Shown one piece after another: positions 10,538-30,417 of a stretch of 32,000 nt of DNA. The stretch is from assembly GCA_965219535.1 (NCBI GenBank), contig CBDCNV010000001.1, positions 1,980,001 through 2,012,000 of the forward strand, in the 5' to 3' direction. The notes under the pieces are model-generated. The model saw only the letters and a program-made list of their open reading frames with translations. It ran no database searches and was not told the DNA's origin. The DNA comes from Opitutales bacterium (GTDB lineage: Bacteria > Verrucomicrobiota > Verrucomicrobiia > Opitutales > PNEW01). The translations under genes were made by a program, and so were the position numbers. How positions within the stretch are numbered: position 1 is the first letter of the stretch; every line of letters begins with the position of its first letter.

Positions 10538-12109
10538 TTACTCTGTTTTTCTTCGCTTAAATACACTGATAATAAAAGTCCACAATTCTTTTAACTCATC
10601 GAATCGAAAGACCCAGAGTAAACTGAAGTAAAATATTATAGCAGTCGGTATAATTATAAATACTGCAATTATCGCGGCCAGTTTCGTGTCTGATATCGAG
10701 CTGTGCACTCTGCTCCAGAAAAAAGCAGTTATGCAACTCATTGTGAAACTGGCGATTATTATTTTTATAACAGGTAATGCTATACTACCAAAATTCAAAG
10801 TAGGTATCTTTTTTCCTAGCATCCAATAGAGAACAAAAGTATGAACAACTGATGCTAAAACATTGGCAATGGCTAAGCCAATTACACCTAGTGGGCCCAT
10901 AAGAATTAAACTGAAAAATATATTGACGATAAAATTCAAAATCGCCAATCGATAAGGAGTCCGCGTGTCTTTCAACGCATAAAATCCTCGTGTCGTAAAA
11001 CCACCGATTGCGTAAAACGGAAGTGCCAGCGCCAAGGTAAAAACGACTGGCATTGTTTGCATTACATCATTTGACTCGAACACACCCCACACAAAAAGAA
11101 GATTCAGAATAGGTTCACGCAGAATAATTAATCCCATCGCGGCTGGAATAGTAACAGCGGTTATCATCCTTACTCCCTGATTAAATACACCGGTAAAACC
11201 GGGTAAATCGTTACGCGCGACAAACTGCGATAGTGACGGAAAAAGTACCGTTGTTACGGCAATAGCAAATACCCCTAAGGGAAGTTCAAGTAAACGATTG
11301 GCCAGGTAGAGTATTGAAACGGCTGCATCGTCTAACCAGAAGGCAAGAAAACGCGTCACGACGATATTAATTTGATAGATTGCAGCTCCTGCGAGTCCAG
11401 GTAGATAGAGGGAAACGAGCTCATTCATTCTTGCCGTTCTTTTAAGATCAAATGCCGGATGCCACCCCTTGTGATTGAGTGAAACTGCGGGTAAAATCAG
11501 CTGGAAAATACCACCGATAATGACCCCACCACATAAATAAGCTACTCTCTCGATCGAAGATTCCGCTAAATAAAATCCAAACCCACCGAGGGATACAATC
11601 ATCGATAGATTGAGCCAAACAGGTGATAAAGCTGCCAGCGTGAATCGCTTTAATATACTTAAGCCAGCATGGATAATAGCTGCCAAACAGATCAATACGA
11701 GGTAGGGTAACAATACGATACCTAATTCAACTCCCAAGTACCATCGATCATTAAGTCCAGGAACGAAATCAATGGCGACGAGGGTCAGCCCGAGCGTTGC
11801 CACGACGATTAACAGGATCAACAGAACACGCGTAAGCACTTGATTGATAAATAGAAATGCACCTTTTTCCCCGTTTTCTTCCAATTCCTCTGTGAGTGTC
11901 GGAACAAGAGCTGCATTTAGGGCACCCTCACCCAATAGTCGCCGGAATAAATTAGGTAATGTAAACGCAAGGATAAATGCTGAATTTAAAGCCGACGTAC
12001 CAAAAGCCGCAAAAATTAATATATCTCGCAACAGGCCCAAGATCCTCGAGCCAATAGTTGAAATTACTACGAGAAAAATATTTAGAAAATTTTTAGGCAT
12101 GGATAACAA
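10538..12109 (-). CDS. murJ: Lipid II flippase MurJ (MviN)
   Basis: 523 aa and about 14 TM segments. The N-terminus (SRILGLLRDILIFAAFGTSALNSAFILAFTLPNLFRRLLGEGALNAALVP) is the canonical MurJ/MviN signature. Confidence 0.9.
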   Translation of the reverse strand: MLSMPKNFLNIFLVVISTIGSRILGLLRDILIFAAFGTSALNSAFILAFTLPNLFRRLLGEGALNAALVPTLTEELEENGEKGAFLFINQVLTRVLLILLIVVATLGLTLVAIDFVPGLNDRWYLGVELGIVLLPYLVLICLAAIIHAGLSILKRFTLAALSPVWLNLSMIVSLGGFGFYLAESSIERVAYLCGGVIIGGIFQLILPAVSLNHKGWHPAFDLKRTARMNELVSLYLPGLAGAAIYQINIVVTRFLAFWLDDAAVSILYLANRLLELPLGVFAIAVTTVLFPSLSQFVARNDLPGFTGVFNQGVRMITAVTIPAAMGLIILREPILNLLFVWGVFESNDVMQTMPVVFTLALALPFYAIGGFTTRGFYALKDTRTPYRLAILNFIVNIFFSLILMGPLGVIGLAIANVLASVVHTFVLYWMLGKKIPTLNFGSIALPVIKIIIASFTMSCITAFFWSRVHSSISDTKLAAIIAVFIIIPTAIIFYFSLLWVFRFDELKELWTFIISVFKRRKTE

Positions 12110-12348
12110 CGGTAAAGATGATCCGAAGTAATGTTAAAGTCTGATGAAAGAAAAAAGAGCTGATACTCACAATTCAAATATTTCCACTCTCATCAATATA
12201 AAGAAAACAGCTAAGTTAAAAATCCAGGTAAATACCGGCGCATCGACCAGCAACCCAGATTATGAGTAGACGAACCGTTATGTAATCTATTAACTGGGAT
12301 TCTCTCAATCCCGAATAGCCCGGTTATTGGTTAGTATTCAGGGCTCGA

Positions 12349-12690
12349 TTAACGGCGCCGGCGCTTTTTAAAAACAATCTCAACAGCCTTGTCTAATCGT
12401 GAAAACATAAATACACGTTGAATTGAGGAACTTGAAATGTGTATTTTCATGGATTTACCAGCTGCTTGAACCTGTTTTACAGTATTGAGAATCATATTCA
12501 GGCCCATGGAATCAATAATTCGGGCTGAATTCAGGTCCAGCTTTAGTTCATCCCAGTTAGCTGGATTATGTTTTTTAATTATACGGTTGATATTATCACT
12601 AAACTCTTCGGCGTTTGTGCTTAGGACATCTCCTTTTAGGGTAATCGTCAGATTATGCTTTGATCGATTTAAAACACCTTTGATCATCAA
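12349..12690 (-). CDS. STAS-domain protein (anti-sigma-factor antagonist / SpoIIAA-RsbV-SypA-like)
   Basis: 113 aa. It contains the conserved phosphorylatable-serine context IIDSMGLNMIL (DSxG motif). It lies immediately downstream (2-nt gap) of the PP2C/kinase fusion gene. Confidence 0.8.
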   Translation of the reverse strand: MMIKGVLNRSKHNLTITLKGDVLSTNAEEFSDNINRIIKKHNPANWDELKLDLNSARIIDSMGLNMILNTVKQVQAAGKSMKIHISSSSIQRVFMFSRLDKAVEIVFKKRRRR

Positions 12691-18471: not shown

Positions 18472-18556
18472 GCTCAGGTGGTGGAATTGGTAGACACGTA
18501 CGCTTGAGGGGCGTATGCCGAAAGGTGTAGGGGTTCGAGTCCCCTCCTGAGCACCA
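18472..18556 (+). tRNA. tRNA-Leu (anticodon GAG), genomically encoded CCA
   Basis: The cloverleaf was folded manually. The acceptor stem is GCTCAGG/CCTGAGC. The anticodon stem TACGC/GCGTA carries the loop TTGAGGG, giving anticodon GAG. There is a long variable arm (TGCCGAAAGGTGTA), a T-arm GGGG-TTCGAGT-CCCC, discriminator A and then CCA. Confidence 0.9.
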
Positions 18557-22234: not shown

Positions 22235-22347
22235 AAACCGATTAAAGTAATTGTATAAGAAGCAGAAGCCAGAATATTTTATTGGACTCGATCATCCTAT
22301 CAGCTTTTCTTTATAACCCCTCAGAATTTAAGTAATTACTAATTATT

Positions 22348-23784
22348 ATGGAAATAAAGCTTTACGATACGATGAGCCGGAAGGTTAAAGCGATTGATCC
22401 GGAAGACGGGACGACCTTTCGGTTTTATTGTTGCGGACCGACTGTATATGGCCCCTCTCATATTGGTAATTTTCGAACTTTTCTCCTACAGGATAATCTG
22501 CGTCGTTTACTCGAAGTAGCTGGTCTGAAAACTTACCACATCCGTAATATAACTGATGTGGATGATAAGACGATCCGACAAAGTCAATCGGAGGGAAAAT
22601 CGCTAAAAGAAATAACCGAAAAATGGACAGTTTTATTTCATAGCGATTGCAGGGAGCTGAATATGCTCCCCCCACACAAGGAACCGCGAGCGTCTGATCA
22701 TATACCGCAGCAAATCGAGCTCGTTCGCACCCTGCTAGAGAAAGGTCACGCCTACCAGGCAAGCGATGGTTCAGTATACTTTAAAATAAGCACATTCCCC
22801 GACTATGGAAAACTAACTCATCTCGATCGTGTAGAGTTAAAAACTCAAACAGAGAGAAGCGGCGACACTCACAATTTGGCAGATGAATATGATCGAGAAA
22901 CAGTAGCAGACTTTTCACTTTGGAAAGCACGCAAGGCAGATGACGGGGACAATTACTGGGCAAGCCCCTGGGGAGAAGGACGTCCCGGCTGGCATATTGA
23001 ATGCTCGGCAATGAGCATGGAGTACTTGGGCGATAGCTTCGACTTACACGGCGGCGGTATCGATATATGCTTCCCGCATCACGAAAATGAAATTGCCCAA
23101 AGCGAAGCGGCGACGGGCAAAATACCCTTTTCCCAACACTGGTTTCACGGCGCTCACTTAATGGTTGAAGGAAGGAAAATGAGCAAAAGTCTCGGGAACC
23201 TATACACTTTGGAAGAGATTAAAAAAAGGGGTGGATCGCCGATGGCTCTACGCTACCTTCTCATTTCCGGTCATTACCGCCAACCCCTAAATTTTACATT
23301 CAACGGAATTGAAGCCGCTCAAAGTGCAGTTAATAAACTGGAAAAATCTATTAGTGAAATCTTAGAGAAAGCTAAAATGAATAAAGAAGATTTTATCCAG
23401 CTTCAGCAAACTGCTGAAGTTGGCGATTGGGGCCAATTTGATAAAGCATGGGAAGCGCTCATTAATGACCTTAATACTCCAACCTGCCTCGGTAATATTT
23501 TTAGCGCACTGAATAAAATTGATGCATCAAAATTAAAGGAAAATGAAACTTTACTCAATCTGAATGCTCTCGCACGACTCACTTACGCACTTGGCTTAGA
23601 GCTCTTTTACGGAGAAAATGGTGCCGTAGTCGCACCAGATGTCGTACGCAAACTCGCTGATGAACGCTGGGTGGCGAAACAGGACAAGGATTTCACCAAA
23701 GCTGATGAACTACGGGAACAAATTCAGGCTGAAGGTTGGCAGGTGCATGATAGAAAAGACACCTATGACCTTGAACCAGTCTGA
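22348..23784 (+). CDS. cysS: Cysteine--tRNA ligase
   Basis: Contains [17 protein letters not shown] (HIGH motif), WHIECS, the KMSKSLGN motif and a C-terminal anticodon-binding/DALR-like region. Confidence 0.95.
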
Positions 23785-23809
23785 GATAGTCTTGGGACTT
23801 ATTACCGGG

Positions 23810-23837
23810 TTGACTTTAGGATCGATGATCATACGCT
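23810..23837 (+). promoter_or_regulatory. Candidate sigma-70-type promoter for the thrS leader (TTGACT-N16-TACGCT)
   Basis: TTGACT lies at 23810..23815 and TACGCT at 23832..23837, separated by 16 nt. The -10 element keeps T1, A2 and T6. It sits about 12 nt upstream of the leader ORF ATG, which implies a very short 5' UTR. This is a pattern match only. Confidence 0.35.
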
Positions 23838-23848
23838 GAAAAAAAGAC

Positions 23849-23929
23849 ATGACTATTCTTGCTCGGATGACTACAACCACCACGACTACCCGAACTATCA
23901 GGGTAGAGACTTGGTTTTGCGAAGAGTAA
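23849..23929 (+). CDS. Thr-rich leader peptide (26 aa, MTILARMTTTTTTTRTIRVETWFCEE) upstream of thrS
   Basis: An ATG-initiated ORF with 10 Thr among 26 codons, including seven consecutive Thr codons (ACT ACA ACC ACC ACG ACT ACC, 23870..23890). It lies between cysS and thrS and is followed by alternative antiterminator and terminator helices. No clear SD sequence is present. The second in-frame ATG at 23867 is an alternative start. Confidence 0.7.
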   Translation: MTILARMTTTTTTTRTIRVETWFCEE

Positions 23930-23964
23930 AGAAACACAGTAACCTTCAATCGTCTAACCAAGTC
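23908..23964 (+). promoter_or_regulatory. Predicted antiterminator helix (segments 2:3) of the thrS attenuator
   Basis: GACTTGGTT (23908..23916, inside the 3' end of the leader ORF) is perfectly complementary over 9 bp to AACCAAGTC (23956..23964). The latter overlaps the 5' arm of the terminator by 5 nt, so the two helices are mutually exclusive. Confidence 0.6.
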
Positions 23965-23995
23965 CGAGCGCTATTAAGCCTTGGACTTTTTTATT
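23960..23995 (+). terminator. Rho-independent terminator (attenuator segments 3:4) immediately upstream of thrS
   Basis: AAGTCCGAG (23960..23968) pairs with CTTGGACTT (23980..23988) to give a 9-bp stem (8 Watson-Crick pairs plus 1 G-U) with an 11-nt loop. A T-tract follows (T6 at 23987..23992, then ATT). It ends about 20 nt before the thrS ATG. Confidence 0.65.
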
Positions 23996-24014
23996 AAATA
24001 GATAAGAAACAACC

Positions 24015-25841
24015 ATGAAGTCGATGACACCTCTAGAGGAAATGCGTCATTCCGCAGCTCATATTATGGCGGCGGCAGTAAAACGTATCTGGCCTGATGC
24101 CAAATTAGATATCGGTCCGCCAACGAGTAGCGGGTTCTATTATGATATGGACCTGGATCATAATTTCACCCCTGAAGACTTGGAAAATATCGAGACTGAA
24201 ATGAAGAAAATAATTAAAGAAAATCAGCGATTTGTACGCCTGGAAGTGAATCGCGAAGAGGCAGTCTCGTTTTTTAAAGAACAAAATCAACCCTATAAAT
24301 TGGAACGCCTTGATGACATCCCAGAAAATGAACCCATTACCTATTATCAGAACGGAGAATTCATAGACCTCTGCGCAGGTACGCACGTTAAATACACTAA
24401 GCAAGTCAAAGCCTTCAAATTACTTTCTATTGCCGGAGCCTATTATCGGGGTGACGAAAATAATAAGCAACTGCAGCGAATATATGGCACCGCATACCCA
24501 ACGAAAAAAGAACTTGATCAATACTTGGAACAATTGGAGGAGGCCAAGAAACGTGACCACCGCAAGCTGGGTAAAGATATGAATCTGTTTCATATCGATG
24601 AGAGTGTTGGTCAGGGCCTCGTCCTCTGGCAACCCAACGGGGCCATTGTCAGGCAGGAACTGCAAACATTTATTAGTGAAGAGCTTACAAAGCAAGGCTA
24701 CTATCAGGTATTTACACCTCATATAGGTAAACTTGGACTTTATCGCACTTCAGGTCATTTTCCTTATTATCAAGACAGTCAGTATCCACCGATAATCGAA
24801 AATGAGGTGATCCAGTTGATGGCGGAGGAAAACTGTTCCTGTGCCCAACTCGCTAATCGTCTAAAAGAAGGGGAAGTCGAAGGTTATCTCCTCAAACCGA
24901 TGAATTGCCCCATGCATATAAAAATATTTGATGCGCAACCCCATTCATATCGTGATCTACCAGTTCGGCTCGCTGAATTCGGCACTGTTTATCGCTGGGA
25001 ACAATCCGGAGAACTAAATGGTATGGTGAGAGTCCGTGGTCTGACCCAGGACGATGGGCACATATTCTGTACCGACGATCAACTTGCCGATGAAATCAGC
25101 GCTAGTCTTGATGTCGTAAAGATAATCCTGCGCACACTCGGTATATTAGAATATCGTGTCCGTATCGGTTTGCGCGATCCTGATTCTTCAAAATATACCG
25201 GCGACTCGACACTTTGGGACAAAGCTGAAGATATTCTGCGCCAGGCAGCCCAGACCCTGAATGTTGATTTCGAAGAAGAGCGAGGAGAAGCCGCCTTTTA
25301 CGGGCCTAAAATTGATTTTGTGATCAAGGATGTGATTGGACGTGAATGGCAATTGGGAACAGTCCAAGTCGATTATAACCTTCCTGAACGCTTTGATCTT
25401 AATTATATTGGTTCCGATAATAAACCACACCGACCGGTAATGATCCATCGCGCTCCATTTGGATCAATGGAAAGATTTGTCGGCCTGCTAATCGAACATT
25501 TTGGAGGAAATTTTCCCACATGGCTTGCTCCTGAACAGGTACGCATACTCCCGATCAATGACGATCTCAACAGCTACGCTGATAAAATATGTGCTCTCTT
25601 AAAAGAGGGAAATGTGCGCGCTACAGTGGATAACATTTCCGACAAACTGGGTGCCAAAATCCGACGTTCAGAGATCGACAAGATCCCCTATGCCCTGGTC
25701 GTGGGCGCGAAAGAAGAGGAATCAAAAAATGTGACCGTAAGATCGAGGGTTAACAAAAGCCATGAGGGCATCTACAGCCTGGAAGACTTCGTTAATCTTA
25801 TTAAAAATGATATTGCCGATAAAGCATTACCCAATCAATAA
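24015..25841 (+). CDS. thrS: Threonine--tRNA ligase (lacks the N-terminal TGS domain; editing domain present)
   Basis: Editing-domain motifs RHSAAHIMAAAV and DLCAGTHV are present, together with class II core motifs and the C-terminal anticodon-binding domain. An in-frame TAA at 24003..24005 prevents any N-terminal extension. Confidence 0.95.
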   Translation: MKSMTPLEEMRHSAAHIMAAAVKRIWPDAKLDIGPPTSSGFYYDMDLDHNFTPEDLENIETEMKKIIKENQRFVRLEVNREEAVSFFKEQNQPYKLERLDDIPENEPITYYQNGEFIDLCAGTHVKYTKQVKAFKLLSIAGAYYRGDENNKQLQRIYGTAYPTKKELDQYLEQLEEAKKRDHRKLGKDMNLFHIDESVGQGLVLWQPNGAIVRQELQTFISEELTKQGYYQVFTPHIGKLGLYRTSGHFPYYQDSQYPPIIENEVIQLMAEENCSCAQLANRLKEGEVEGYLLKPMNCPMHIKIFDAQPHSYRDLPVRLAEFGTVYRWEQSGELNGMVRVRGLTQDDGHIFCTDDQLADEISASLDVVKIILRTLGILEYRVRIGLRDPDSSKYTGDSTLWDKAEDILRQAAQTLNVDFEEERGEAAFYGPKIDFVIKDVIGREWQLGTVQVDYNLPERFDLNYIGSDNKPHRPVMIHRAPFGSMERFVGLLIEHFGGNFPTWLAPEQVRILPINDDLNSYADKICALLKEGNVRATVDNISDKLGAKIRRSEIDKIPYALVVGAKEEESKNVTVRSRVNKSHEGIYSLEDFVNLIKNDIADKALPNQ

Positions 25842-27945: not shown

Positions 27946-28944
27946 TTGTTTTATAGTAATACCGTGTCGCGCTTAAAACATCTATTAAATGAAATAAACT
28001 ATAAACTCGTTCGCCGTTTGGCAGAGGGCGGTATGGGTATGGTTTATGAAGGACAACAACATGGAATAGATAAATTTTCCAAAACAGTGGCGATCAAGTT
28101 AATCCGTGAAGAGTATTCTAAGATTAAAGAATTCCGCAGTAATTTTATAGGAGAAGCCAAATTAGTTGCAGATCTTATCCATACCAATATCGTTCAAACC
28201 TATCACCTGGGAGAAATTGATGGTCAGTATTTCATCGTCATGGAATATGTAAATGGCATCAATCTTGAAGAGTTTCATTTTAAACATTTAGCATTAGGCC
28301 TTCCCGTTCCTGTGGATTTAGCAGTATTTATTGTCTCACGGGTATGTCGGGGGCTGGCCTACGCGCACTCAAAATGTGACAAGGAAGGCCGACTTCTCAA
28401 CATCGTTCACCGAGACGTCAATCCTAAGAATATTATGCTGGCTTATGAAGGAGATGTAAAGCTGACTGATTTCGGAATCGCTAAAGCGCTTGATCTCATG
28501 TACAATGTTGAAGGCGAAGTCATTGCAGGGAAAGATGAATACCTATCTCCGGAACAGGCAAAGCGAGAGGTTACGGATGCCAGAGCCGATCTTTTTTCAT
28601 GCGGGATCGTTTTAGCTGAATTATTACTCGATAAAAATATTTTTGAAGAAGATAACCCGAAGTTGACACGCCGTAATATTCTCAAAATGCAAATACCGGA
28701 TTTCACTCAATTACGGCCCGAAATCGATTCCAAACTTAATGACATCCTTCACAAAACTTTCCAGCGTAATCGAGATGACAGATATCAAAGTGCCGCAGAA
28801 TTACTTACCGCGTTAGAAGTTTATCTTTATAGTGATGGATATGGGCCGACTAATGAAAAATTGGCAGATTACGTGCAAGATATTTTCGATAAAAAACAGT
28901 CTGAACCTTTGGCCCATCAATCAACGAGCCAGTCTTCTTCTTAA
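27946..28944 (+). CDS. Hanks-type Ser/Thr protein kinase, catalytic domain only
   Basis: Contains the Gly loop [15 protein letters not shown] Lys, alphaC Glu (GEAKL), the catalytic loop [11 protein letters not shown] (LTDFGIAK), SPE (YLSPEQ), DLFSCG and a subdomain XI Arg. No TM or sensor domain is present. The start is a TTG at 27946, and a GTG at 27964 is also possible. Confidence 0.85.
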
Positions 28945-28977
28945 AAATAAACGCAGATCGTATAGTTGAATTTATTA

Positions 28978-30417
28978 ATGAGTGCGCAAGGATTCCATCA
29001 AGTTCAGAAACAGACGCAAAATCTGGTCTTAGCTCCGCAATTGCGGCAGTCGCTCAAGATATTGCAGGTCCCCGCACTCGACTTGCGCAATGTTATCGTA
29101 GAAGAATTACAAAGTAATCCCGCACTTGAAGAATTGCCAATTGAAGGGATCAGTATTGAAGAGTCTAATAGCACGAGTGAAGATAGCGAGAATGATTCCT
29201 CTAAAGAGGAATTGGAATTTAGTGATGACTTTAAAGTCTTGAATCAAATGGAGGAAGACTGGGCTGAATTATATACCCAGGATGGAGGTAGTTATTCTTC
29301 GGAAGCAGCTGATCGTCGCCAGCATCTGTTTGATTCGCTCACGAGCGAGACATCACTTCAAGAGTATCTCATCCGTCAAGCGGAGCTTTCTGACGCATCT
29401 GAAGAAATAATGAAAGCATTAGAGTATCTTGTCGGCAGCCTTGATGATCATGGCTTTCTCACCATTGCAATTCCTGAAATTGCACTCATGTCGGAACTCC
29501 CGTTAAGCACCATACAAGAGGCGCATAAGCTGCTTAAAACTCTCGATCCTCCAGGTATAGGAAGTGTCGATCTGCAAGAATGCCTTCTCATACAGCTCAA
29601 AATTCAAGGCAAAGAAGAGGGCGTTGCCGCTGATATTATAAAAAAACATTTCGAGCTCCTTTTACGCCGCCGTATTCCAGAAATTGCACGGAAAATTAAT
29701 GTGAGCATTGAAATTATTGAAAATGCAATTGAAGAAATCGCATCACTTGACCCCTCACCCGGTCGCCGGTTTAGCGATGATAATAATCGAGTCGTTGTTC
29801 CCGACGTAAAAGTTGAAAAAGTTGGTGATTCGTGGACGGTGGTGATGAATAATGACTATATCCCCAGACTCAGACTAAGTTCAACCTACAAGGATCTTAT
29901 TGCGAAAGGAAAACTGTCAGCCACCGAAAAAGTGTATATCCAGGATAAAGTTCGATCAGGGAAATTTCTGATAAGTTCAATCGAACAGAGGCAGCAGACA
30001 ATAGAGCGAATAACACGAGAAATACTTAAATTCCAAAATGATTTCTTTGAAAAAGGAGTATCTCATCTGAGGCCGCTGACGATGAGCCAGGTAGCTGATG
30101 CGGTAGGGGTTCATGAAACCACGGTTAGTCGAGCTATCGCAAATAAATACATCGATACACCCCACGGTGTTTTGCCTTTTAAATACTTTTTTACCTCCGG
30201 CTACCAGGCAGATGGTGGCGAAGCGATTTCTAATACCAGTATTAAAGAACGGATCGCGCATTTAATCCATACTGAAAACTCGTCCAAACCTTATAGTGAC
30301 CAGGAAGTCGTGAAAATACTAGCTGAGCGGGATATCAAAATAGCCCGACGGACGGTGGCTAAATACCGGGAAGAATTGGGTATTCCCGCCACCAATCTTC
30401 GCCGAAGGTATTCTTAA
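28978..30417 (+). CDS. rpoN: RNA polymerase sigma-54 factor
   Basis: Region I is Gln/Leu-rich (LAPQLRQSLKILQ). An acidic region II follows, then the region III HTH (MSQVADAVGVHETTVSRAIANKYI) and the RpoN box (ARRTVAKYREELGIP). The start is set at the ATG at 28978; the ORF track began at a TTG at 28966. Confidence 0.95.
   Translation: MSAQGFHQVQKQTQNLVLAPQLRQSLKILQVPALDLRNVIVEELQSNPALEELPIEGISIEESNSTSEDSENDSSKEELEFSDDFKVLNQMEEDWAELYTQDGGSYSSEAADRRQHLFDSLTSETSLQEYLIRQAELSDASEEIMKALEYLVGSLDDHGFLTIAIPEIALMSELPLSTIQEAHKLLKTLDPPGIGSVDLQECLLIQLKIQGKEEGVAADIIKKHFELLLRRRIPEIARKINVSIEIIENAIEEIASLDPSPGRRFSDDNNRVVVPDVKVEKVGDSWTVVMNNDYIPRLRLSSTYKDLIAKGKLSATEKVYIQDKVRSGKFLISSIEQRQQTIERITREILKFQNDFFEKGVSHLRPLTMSQVADAVGVHETTVSRAIANKYIDTPHGVLPFKYFFTSGYQADGGEAISNTSIKERIAHLIHTENSSKPYSDQEVVKILAERDIKIARRTVAKYREELGIPATNLRRRYS

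Follow-up and report, generated by a model that had tools for sequence, protein, structure and literature searches.

A probable leader-peptide attenuator upstream of the threonyl-tRNA synthetase gene in a marine clade of Opitutales (Verrucomicrobiota)

The 32 kb stretch of DNA analysed here (the window) belongs to the genome of a member of the Opitutales, an order of the Verrucomicrobiota. In it, the genes for cysteinyl-tRNA synthetase (cysS) and threonyl-tRNA synthetase (thrS, encoding ThrRS) are separated by a 230-nt spacer that holds a leader open reading frame (ORF) rich in Thr codons, an antiterminator and a terminator (Table 1). The in silico evidence presented below supports the view that this spacer probably acts on thrS as a classical ribosome-mediated (leader-peptide) transcription attenuator. 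The sequence elements, their energies, their mutual exclusivity, their geometry and their selective conservation are established here. An attenuator of this type had been proposed from the letters of the window alone (the original prediction); judged from the sequence, its predictions at that level hold, and the comparative test is positive within the clade to which the genome belongs.

The leader ORF agrees base for base with the one originally described: 26 codons at 23849..23929, ten of them for Thr, seven of these being consecutive. The run reads ACT ACA ACC ACC ACG ACT ACC (23870-23890) and uses every one of the four Thr codons. Thr accounts for 10 of the 26 leader codons (38%), as against 4.8% of the codons in the window's genes. 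Seven Thr codons in a row never appeared in 200,000 shuffles of the spacer, where the longest run was of six and was seen once; the analytic expectation for a run of seven in the spacer is about 2e-6. Among the six frames of the entire window, homo-amino-acid runs of at least five residues number three, including the one under study. One of the others is the complement of the Thr run, which is the sole run of its kind. A chance origin of the Thr run is excluded. The possibility that the region belongs to a gene on the opposite strand was also considered. A minus-strand ORF (23710-23961), which contains a run of seven Val codons and whose third codon positions coincide with those of the leader, was rejected as a gene because stop codons break it in three of the loci compared (L161, L162 and L164).

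Portions of the Thr run (segment 1) and of the RNA that follows it (segments 2 to 4) can engage in alternative pairings. AACCA (23875-79) pairs with UGGUU (23912-16) and CUACCC (23886-91) with GGGUAG (23901-06); the resulting 1:2 structure, an inner CUACCC/GGGUAG hairpin within an outer AACCA/UGGUU helix, has a predicted energy of -12.8 kcal/mol. In turn, GACTTGGTT (23908-16) and AACCAAGTC (23956-64) are complementary, without mismatch, over all nine bases. In the nascent RNA extending to 23972, these 9 bp together with a nested 4-bp GCGA/UCGU helix make up the 2:3 antiterminator. The terminator arms, AAGTCCGAG (23960-68) and CTTGGACTT (23980-88), form nine pairs, one of them G-U, with inner pairs of the CGC/GCG type. 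Both structures lay claim to AAGUC (23960-64), which constitutes the last five nucleotides of segment 3 and belongs to the 5' arm of the terminator as well. The arms of antiterminator and terminator and the strings proposed to pair within the leader (AACCA, CTACC, GGTAG and TGGTT) all lie where they had been predicted. Comparing the energies of the two conformers had been suggested as a check; the values are comparable, -16.1 to -16.8 kcal/mol for 2:3 and -15.7 kcal/mol for 3:4. One detail required correction. The T6-ATT said to follow the hairpin is present (T6 at 23987-92, then A and TT), but two of the six T residues are the last bases of the stem and the true tail is UUUU-A-UU. The T-tract ends about 20 nt upstream of the thrS ATG. 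As a whole, the spacer region is more stable than its shuffles (z = -2.8).

A custom energy-based scan of both strands of the window found two hairpins with a T-tract at or below -15 kcal/mol, the one at 23960-23995 included. A simple terminator scan had overlooked the latter because its stem is interrupted. The other hairpin (12222-12262, minus strand, -16.6 kcal/mol), probably an ordinary terminator, follows an ORF of about 112 amino acids (~12350-12687, minus strand; similar by eye to anti-sigma-factor antagonists of the STAS type), in a 583-nt gap before murJ (10538-12109, minus strand). Its position after an ordinary gene end indicates that this terminator format is in use in the organism, though it is uncommon.

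To assess conservation, close relatives were gathered through the protein database and its clusters, yielding eight distinct intact spacers whose associated ThrRS are 85-100% identical. The columns of the leader ATG and TAA are fixed in 8/8 of these orthologues, and each has six or seven Thr codons in a row as well as Thr16. Within Thr codons 9-14 and 16, at least six synonymous changes have occurred at third positions, while first and second positions are unaltered (0/14). In contrast, 7 of the 12 first and second positions vary in the N-terminal codons 2-7, where amino acids are freely exchanged (Fisher p = 0.0012 relative to the Thr codons). This contrast indicates that the Thr codons themselves are selected, and not the peptide or the nucleotide string. 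The best-kept part of the spacer is the segment comprising the terminator, segment 3 and the T-tract (23956-23994), in which 36 of 39 columns (92%) are invariant. When the window is compared with the most distant intact orthologue (L164), identity is 80% over the spacer and 92% over segment 3 and the terminator, but 46-48% at the 4-fold sites of cysS and thrS on either side. With a second orthologue (L162) the figures are 91% for the spacer versus 76-80% at 4-fold sites. The spacer is thus under strong purifying selection. As to the helices, 91% of the alignment cells of 2:3 are paired and no covariation is seen; the pair 23887/23905 in the inner 1:2 hairpin shows a compensatory change from U-A to C-G in L164; and the terminator shows one improvement, from G-U to A-U. 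The comparison with relatives, which the original prediction had put forward as a test, hence bears it out with regard to the Thr-run ORF and the helices, kept in the eight orthologues, but compensatory change is confined to one pair.

Conservation within the ORF could also denote a functional small peptide, or the region could be the source of a small RNA (sRNA) released at the terminator, with a role unrelated to thrS control in either case. The peptide is conserved in its C-terminal half (R-T-I/F-R-V-E/D-T/A-W/L-F/L-C-E/K-E), in part through changes that are synonymous. Products of attenuators acting in trans have precedents in Sinorhizobium, where two reports describe both sRNAs released from attenuators and leader peptides as having functions in trans (PMC6614838, PMC7298713). 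However, the conserved C-terminal codons coincide with RNA segment 2 and with the 3' arm of the 1:2 structure, so that RNA constraints explain their conservation, and the N-terminal third of the peptide is unconstrained. Blastn searches against the window and all fetched loci gave orthologous copies of the spacer only, and no paralogous one. Furthermore, a site just upstream of thrS and a run of cognate codons are what attenuation in cis predicts; a role in trans would add to such attenuation, not replace it. We regard a peptide or sRNA unrelated to thrS as very unlikely.

Attenuation of thrS would proceed as follows. Transcription would begin, probably, at the promoter at 23810-37, with a possible contribution of read-through from cysS, and the 26-codon leader would be translated while RNA polymerase proceeds. 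If Thr-tRNA(Thr) is ample, the ribosome would reach the stop codon (23927-29), where its footprint (approximately 23909-23940) would hide segment 2; upon ribosome release, segment 2 would re-pair with segment 1. This would leave segment 3 free to join segment 4 in the terminator hairpin and so end transcription at the T-tract. If charged tRNA(Thr) is scarce, for want of threonine or of ThrRS activity, the ribosome would stall in the run of seven Thr codons. It would then hide segment 1 and leave segment 2 available to pair with segment 3 once the latter has emerged. The 2:3 pairing would prevent the terminator from forming its five pairs next to the U-tract, at the bottom of the stem, allowing the polymerase to enter thrS. 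We infer from the arrangement that the promoter is used, that the ORF is translated, and that termination occurs and is relieved when Thr becomes limiting.

The geometry of the spacer is in keeping with this scheme. The Thr run encompasses segment 1 (23875-91), and segment 2 (23908-16) ends 11 nt before the leader stop codon; a ribosome footprint reaches about 15 nt upstream of the P site. Nascent RNA to 23972 from which the Thr-run region was removed, mimicking a stalled ribosome, folds as 2:3, and the fold predicted for the RNA free behind a ribosome at the stop codon is the terminator only. In these models, therefore, a ribosome at the stop codon would mask segment 2 and one stalled in the Thr run would free it, as originally proposed. 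It should also be considered that thrS is an essential gene. Since it starts 20 nt beyond the terminator, with no room for a standard promoter in between, the terminator must let the polymerase through, either conditionally or in a fraction of cases.

Upstream of the leader ORF, a putative promoter combines an invariant -35 hexamer, TTGACT, with a more variable -10 element. Among orthologues the latter reads TACGCT, TACGTT, TACTCT, TAATTT, TCTATT or TAAACT; over nine lineages, T1 and T6 are invariant, A2 is found in 8/9 and the middle varies. The predicted transcription start (around 23843-45) would give a 5' untranslated region of about 5 nt. A TTGAC motif is found 40-105 nt before thrS in about half of the more distant, leaderless relatives. 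In light of this, it looks as if some 150 nt of leader and terminator had been placed between an ancestral thrS promoter and thrS. On the translational side, the starts of about 18 genes in the window, including those of cysS (22318-22350) and thrS (23985-24017), mostly have no Shine-Dalgarno (SD) sequence and are A/T-rich upstream, which suggests that initiation in this organism is largely SD-independent.

These data bear on the possibility that the hairpin is simply a constitutive terminator of cysS. Here, thrS would have its own promoter, overlapping or downstream of the hairpin, and perhaps a near-leaderless mRNA, and the Thr-rich ORF would be non-functional. It is true that no other terminator lies between cysS and thrS, that weak -10-like strings occur after the T-tract (TATTAA at 23992-97 and TAGATA at 23999-24004) and that one related lineage (L165, described below) is without both terminator and ORF. 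Nonetheless, the interval of about 20 nt between the T-tract and the thrS ATG has no recognisable -35 hexamer and scanning for plus-strand promoters found none there; the invariant TTGACT is located upstream of the leader ORF instead. Nor does a plain terminator need a position 175 nt past the cysS stop codon. Such an arrangement would also leave unexplained the synonymous evolution of the Thr codons, the fixed ATG and stop codon, and the presence of a 9-bp complement of the terminator arm. We find a mere cysS terminator decidedly improbable.

Alternatively, the ORF might sense Thr-tRNA by ribosome stalling, with an output other than intrinsic termination: Rho-dependent termination or polarity, stability or processing of mRNA through the hairpin, or control of thrS translation. 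The conserved Thr codons fit any translated sensor, the switch between 2:3 and 3:4 is shallow, with a 5-nt overlap and no covariation in 2:3, and intrinsic terminators seem scarce in the window. Against this stands the hairpin itself, which together with its T6AUU constitutes a canonical intrinsic terminator and is the most conserved part of the spacer. Control at the level of translation is further disfavoured by the thrS start region (23995-24014), which is A-rich and remains unpaired, hence not sequestered, in every predicted fold, and by the 85 nt between the leader stop codon (23927-29) and the thrS ATG (24015), which exclude direct translational coupling. A different output of the same sensor appears unlikely.

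Several observations weigh against attenuation by intrinsic termination as set out above, and they concern first of all the strength of the switch. The 1:2 pairing of the original prediction exists but is weaker than had been claimed: its outer helix of 5 bp (AACCA/UGGUU) alone competes with 2:3. Because 1:2 is weak, discrimination probably rests mainly on the stop-codon ribosome covering segment 2. In addition, the nascent RNA already has 2:3 in its ribosome-free fold, so that the untranslated default may be read-through rather than termination. The overlap between antiterminator and terminator is just 5 nt, and RNAalifold allows a partial 2:3 alongside the terminator. Masking of segment 1 leaves the terminator conformer ahead by 2 kcal/mol (-24.3 versus -22.3 kcal/mol), which means that the switch would have to be kinetic. 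The decision is likewise kinetic in textbook attenuators. A second group of reservations comes from the alignment. Covariation is near zero: a single compensatory pair lies in 1:2, and neither 2:3 nor the intact terminators have any. It is thin because the clade is shallow: there are eight sequences, with a mean column identity of 92%. Mismatches that arise in the antiterminator of two orthologues (G to U at 23913 in L162, U to C at 23915 in L180) are not compensated. Finally, the putative leader promoter scores below the threshold of a consensus scan; the leader ATG has no SD sequence, which is normal in this window; terminator-like sites are not enriched in the window (12, versus 17.3 expected); and the L165 lineage evidently lives without the element.

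Other modes of thrS control are known. In E. coli, ThrRS binds a tRNA-like operator and blocks thrS translation, whereas in the T-box of Firmicutes thrS uncharged tRNA binds the leader RNA. Recognition of one of these kinds, RNA-tRNA in a T-box or RNA-protein in an operator that mimics tRNA(Thr) and is bound by ThrRS, was therefore considered for the spacer, all the more because T-boxes, too, use a terminator/antiterminator pair as their expression platform. Rfam gave no relevant match, either in a scan of the window at gathering thresholds or in a permissive scan of 23700-24100 (E up to 10), where the sole match was a chance snoRNA (E = 7.8). The loops, GAACUAUCA and UAUU, are unlike the anticodon loop of tRNA(Thr) by inspection, and neither model explains a run of Thr codons that looks translated. 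A T-box is effectively refuted, both by the lack of an Rfam match and by the length from putative start to terminator, about 145 nt, which is too short. An operator of the E. coli type appears to be ruled out by inspection of the predicted structures, in which no loop resembles an anticodon arm and the thrS start region is unstructured. Taken together, T-box or operator control is extremely unlikely here. Membership in the Rfam family Thr_leader (RF00506) was likewise rejected, as its covariance model gave no match. The operator and the T-box share with the proposed attenuator the aim of raising ThrRS output when the enzyme or charged tRNA(Thr) runs short, but neither of them involves a translated leader ORF.

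The distribution of the leader-peptide attenuator candidate is narrow. No Thr-rich mini-ORF was found upstream of thrS in 160 loci (80 from genomes and 80 from metagenome contigs) whose ThrRS is at most 72% identical, and the leader is absent from three intermediate relatives, P0005 (75%), P0007 (73%) and P0013 (73%). The element is confined to one genus-level marine clade. Conservation in relatives, as originally anticipated, thus holds within the clade and ceases at ThrRS identities of 75% or below. A sister lineage represented by L165 and L166 (ThrRS 84% identical) carries a homologous, decayed spacer (L165:2765-3000), 60% identical as against 38% at neutral sites. In the L165 copy the leader ATG has become ATC, a 3-nt deletion and an in-frame TAA occur right after the Thr codons (…NTNTTT*), and TGAGGG stands in place of the T-tract, with no stable terminator predicted. 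The L166 spacer is mostly a run of N. Joint loss of start codon, frame and T-tract in this lineage fits a sensor and a terminator that work as a unit.

Adjacency of cysS and thrS is kept in other Opitutae and Verrucomicrobia (L003, L004 and L168-L170), where the gap measures 33-50 nt and contains no terminator, implying co-transcription of the two genes in those relatives. Relative to this gap, the 230-nt spacer of the clade is an expansion. We lean slightly towards the view that the element is the first well-supported leader-peptide attenuator of thrS and the first in the Verrucomicrobiota or the wider Planctomycetes-Verrucomicrobia-Chlamydiae (PVC) group, that it arose recently, and that the intact and decayed copies form a birth-and-death series.

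Table 1. Positions of the genes and of the candidate regulatory elements in the cysS-thrS region of the window
Feature	Position	Strand	Basis
cysS (cysteine--tRNA ligase)	22348..23784	+	NCBIfam TIGR00435, E = 1.8e-127, above curated cut-off
Putative -35 hexamer, TTGACT	23810..23815	+	Invariant in the 8 intact orthologues and in decayed L165
Putative -10 hexamer, TACGCT, 16 nt after the -35	23832..23837	+	Inferred; T1 and T6 invariant
Leader ORF, 26 codons + stop, MTILARMTTTTTTTRTIRVETWFCEE*	23849..23929	+	Translation; ATG and TAA in same columns in 8 orthologues
Regulatory codons: seven Thr (23870-90), Arg, Thr (23894-96)	23870..23896	+	Thr kept in 8 orthologues
Segment 1: AACCA (23875-79) and CUACCC (23886-91), within the Thr run	23875..23891	+	Pairs with segment 2
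Segment 2: GGGUAG (23901-06), GACUUGGUU (23908-16, 5' arm of antiterminator), GCGA extension (23919-22)	23901..23922	+	Complementarity
Segment 3: UCGU (23950-53) and AACCAAGUC (23956-64)	23950..23964	+	2:3 helix
Candidate intrinsic terminator: stem 23960-68/23980-88, then T-tract	23960..23995	+	-15.7 kcal/mol; conserved
thrS (threonine--tRNA ligase)	24015..25841	+	NCBIfam TIGR00418, E = 3.1e-205, equivalog model above cut-off

The thrS gene has two in-frame ATG codons, at 24015 and 24024 (MKSMTPLEE…), between which public calls are divided (608 versus 605 amino acids). An exact look-up of the 608-residue ThrRS in the protein database returned no record, and P0122 is 100% identical to the ThrRS of the window when counted from the ATG at 24024. 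The start at 24015 is favoured because the motif MK-x-M-[TS]-P is conserved even in distant relatives; the N-terminus conserved in relatives continues with LEE after this motif. In the 608-residue protein, the domains tRNA_SAD, class II core and HGTP_anticodon are present; the precomputed Pfam lists of close ThrRS homologues show no TGS domain at the N-terminus. Named thrS loci closest to that of the window belong to metagenome-assembled genomes of Opitutales, Puniceicoccaceae and Coraliomargaritaceae, with ThrRS 67-70% identical, and near-identical sequences are present in marine metagenomes, one of them a Tara sample. Loci L173 and L175-L179 stem from marine samples such as those of the Tara or polar datasets. 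In one ThrRS homologue of 661 amino acids (P0006), a stretch of about 43 residues (PVMIHRAPFGSMERF…RILPMND) is present twice in identical form, probably through an assembly artefact. Elsewhere in the window, a gene for a PknB-like Ser/Thr kinase (27946-30417, plus strand) is directly followed by rpoN (sigma-54), a neighbourhood that is syntenic across all close relatives. A tRNA-Leu(GAG) gene (18472-18556, plus strand) is the sole tRNA gene of the window and its sole Rfam match at gathering level.

Leader-peptide attenuation of a synthetase operon has its classical precedent in E. coli pheST, controlled by pheM (as cited in PMC1262725). Like pheST, the locus described here has a synthetase gene preceded by a short leader ORF rich in cognate codons and then by an antiterminator and an intrinsic terminator. 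The two differ in that pheST senses Phe, belongs to Gammaproteobacteria and is experimentally established, whereas the present element is known in silico; their sequences are unrelated. The E. coli thrL leader (Thr_leader, RF00506) resembles the proposed attenuator in using runs of Thr codons as a gauge of charged tRNA(Thr) to control an intrinsic terminator. However, thrL includes Ile codons as well and controls the biosynthetic thrABC genes, in place of a synthetase gene, and the absence of an Rfam match makes the spacer an analogue of thrL, not a homologue.

Closest in target is an 18-codon 'thrL' upstream of thrS in Streptomyces lividans TK24, annotated from RNA-seq (PMC8079986). Its peptide, MKRVRPFLETTPGFVPAR, contains two Thr codons and is leaderless; a single hairpin without a U-rich tract follows, and termination was described as 'not clear' (PMC8079986). 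Target gene and leader-peptide principle are the same in both cases, but the element of the Opitutales clade has a run of seven Thr codons, followed by an explicit antiterminator and a canonical terminator, and it is backed by comparative data. Comparative genomics has also predicted leader-peptide attenuators for leuS and trpS in Streptomyces (PMC1262725) and for hisS paralogues in Bacillus (PMC2965389). These are classical synthetase attenuators outside the Proteobacteria, for other amino acids and in other phyla; none is from the PVC group and none concerns thrS. In view of these predictions (PMC1262725) and of the weak thrL-thrS case (PMC8079986), the original statement that leader-peptide attenuation was not known for thrS was too strong. 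Reports of thrS attenuators beyond that of S. lividans were not found in a literature coverage that excludes the survey of Lopatovskaya et al. 2010 (Mol Biol 44:128), which a citing paper (PMC4833913) refers to as dealing with attenuation of aminoacyl-tRNA synthetase operons. When Verrucomicrobia was searched together with terms for leader-peptide attenuation, no paper combining them was among the 15 listed of 171 matches.

In conclusion, the mechanism proposed is of a known kind; what is new is its target gene, for which the evidence is strong, and its phylum. The element is restricted to one marine clade, and no new principle is involved. The control of synthetase genes is a classic example of how diverse regulation can be, and the spacer, if it acts as proposed, would represent a third solution for thrS beside the protein-binding operator of E. 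coli and the T-box of Firmicutes. To our knowledge, RNA-level regulation in Verrucomicrobiota is almost unexplored. The attenuator would extend leader-peptide attenuation to this phylum and, by implication, transcription-translation coupling and intrinsic termination as well. With a length of about 190 nt the element is compact, and might find use as a sensor of Thr-tRNA. Its narrow distribution, with a series of intact copies and a decayed one, offers a view of how attenuators originate; if its origin is indeed recent, the clade would provide a natural birth-and-death series in which the assembly and the dismantling of an attenuator can be followed.

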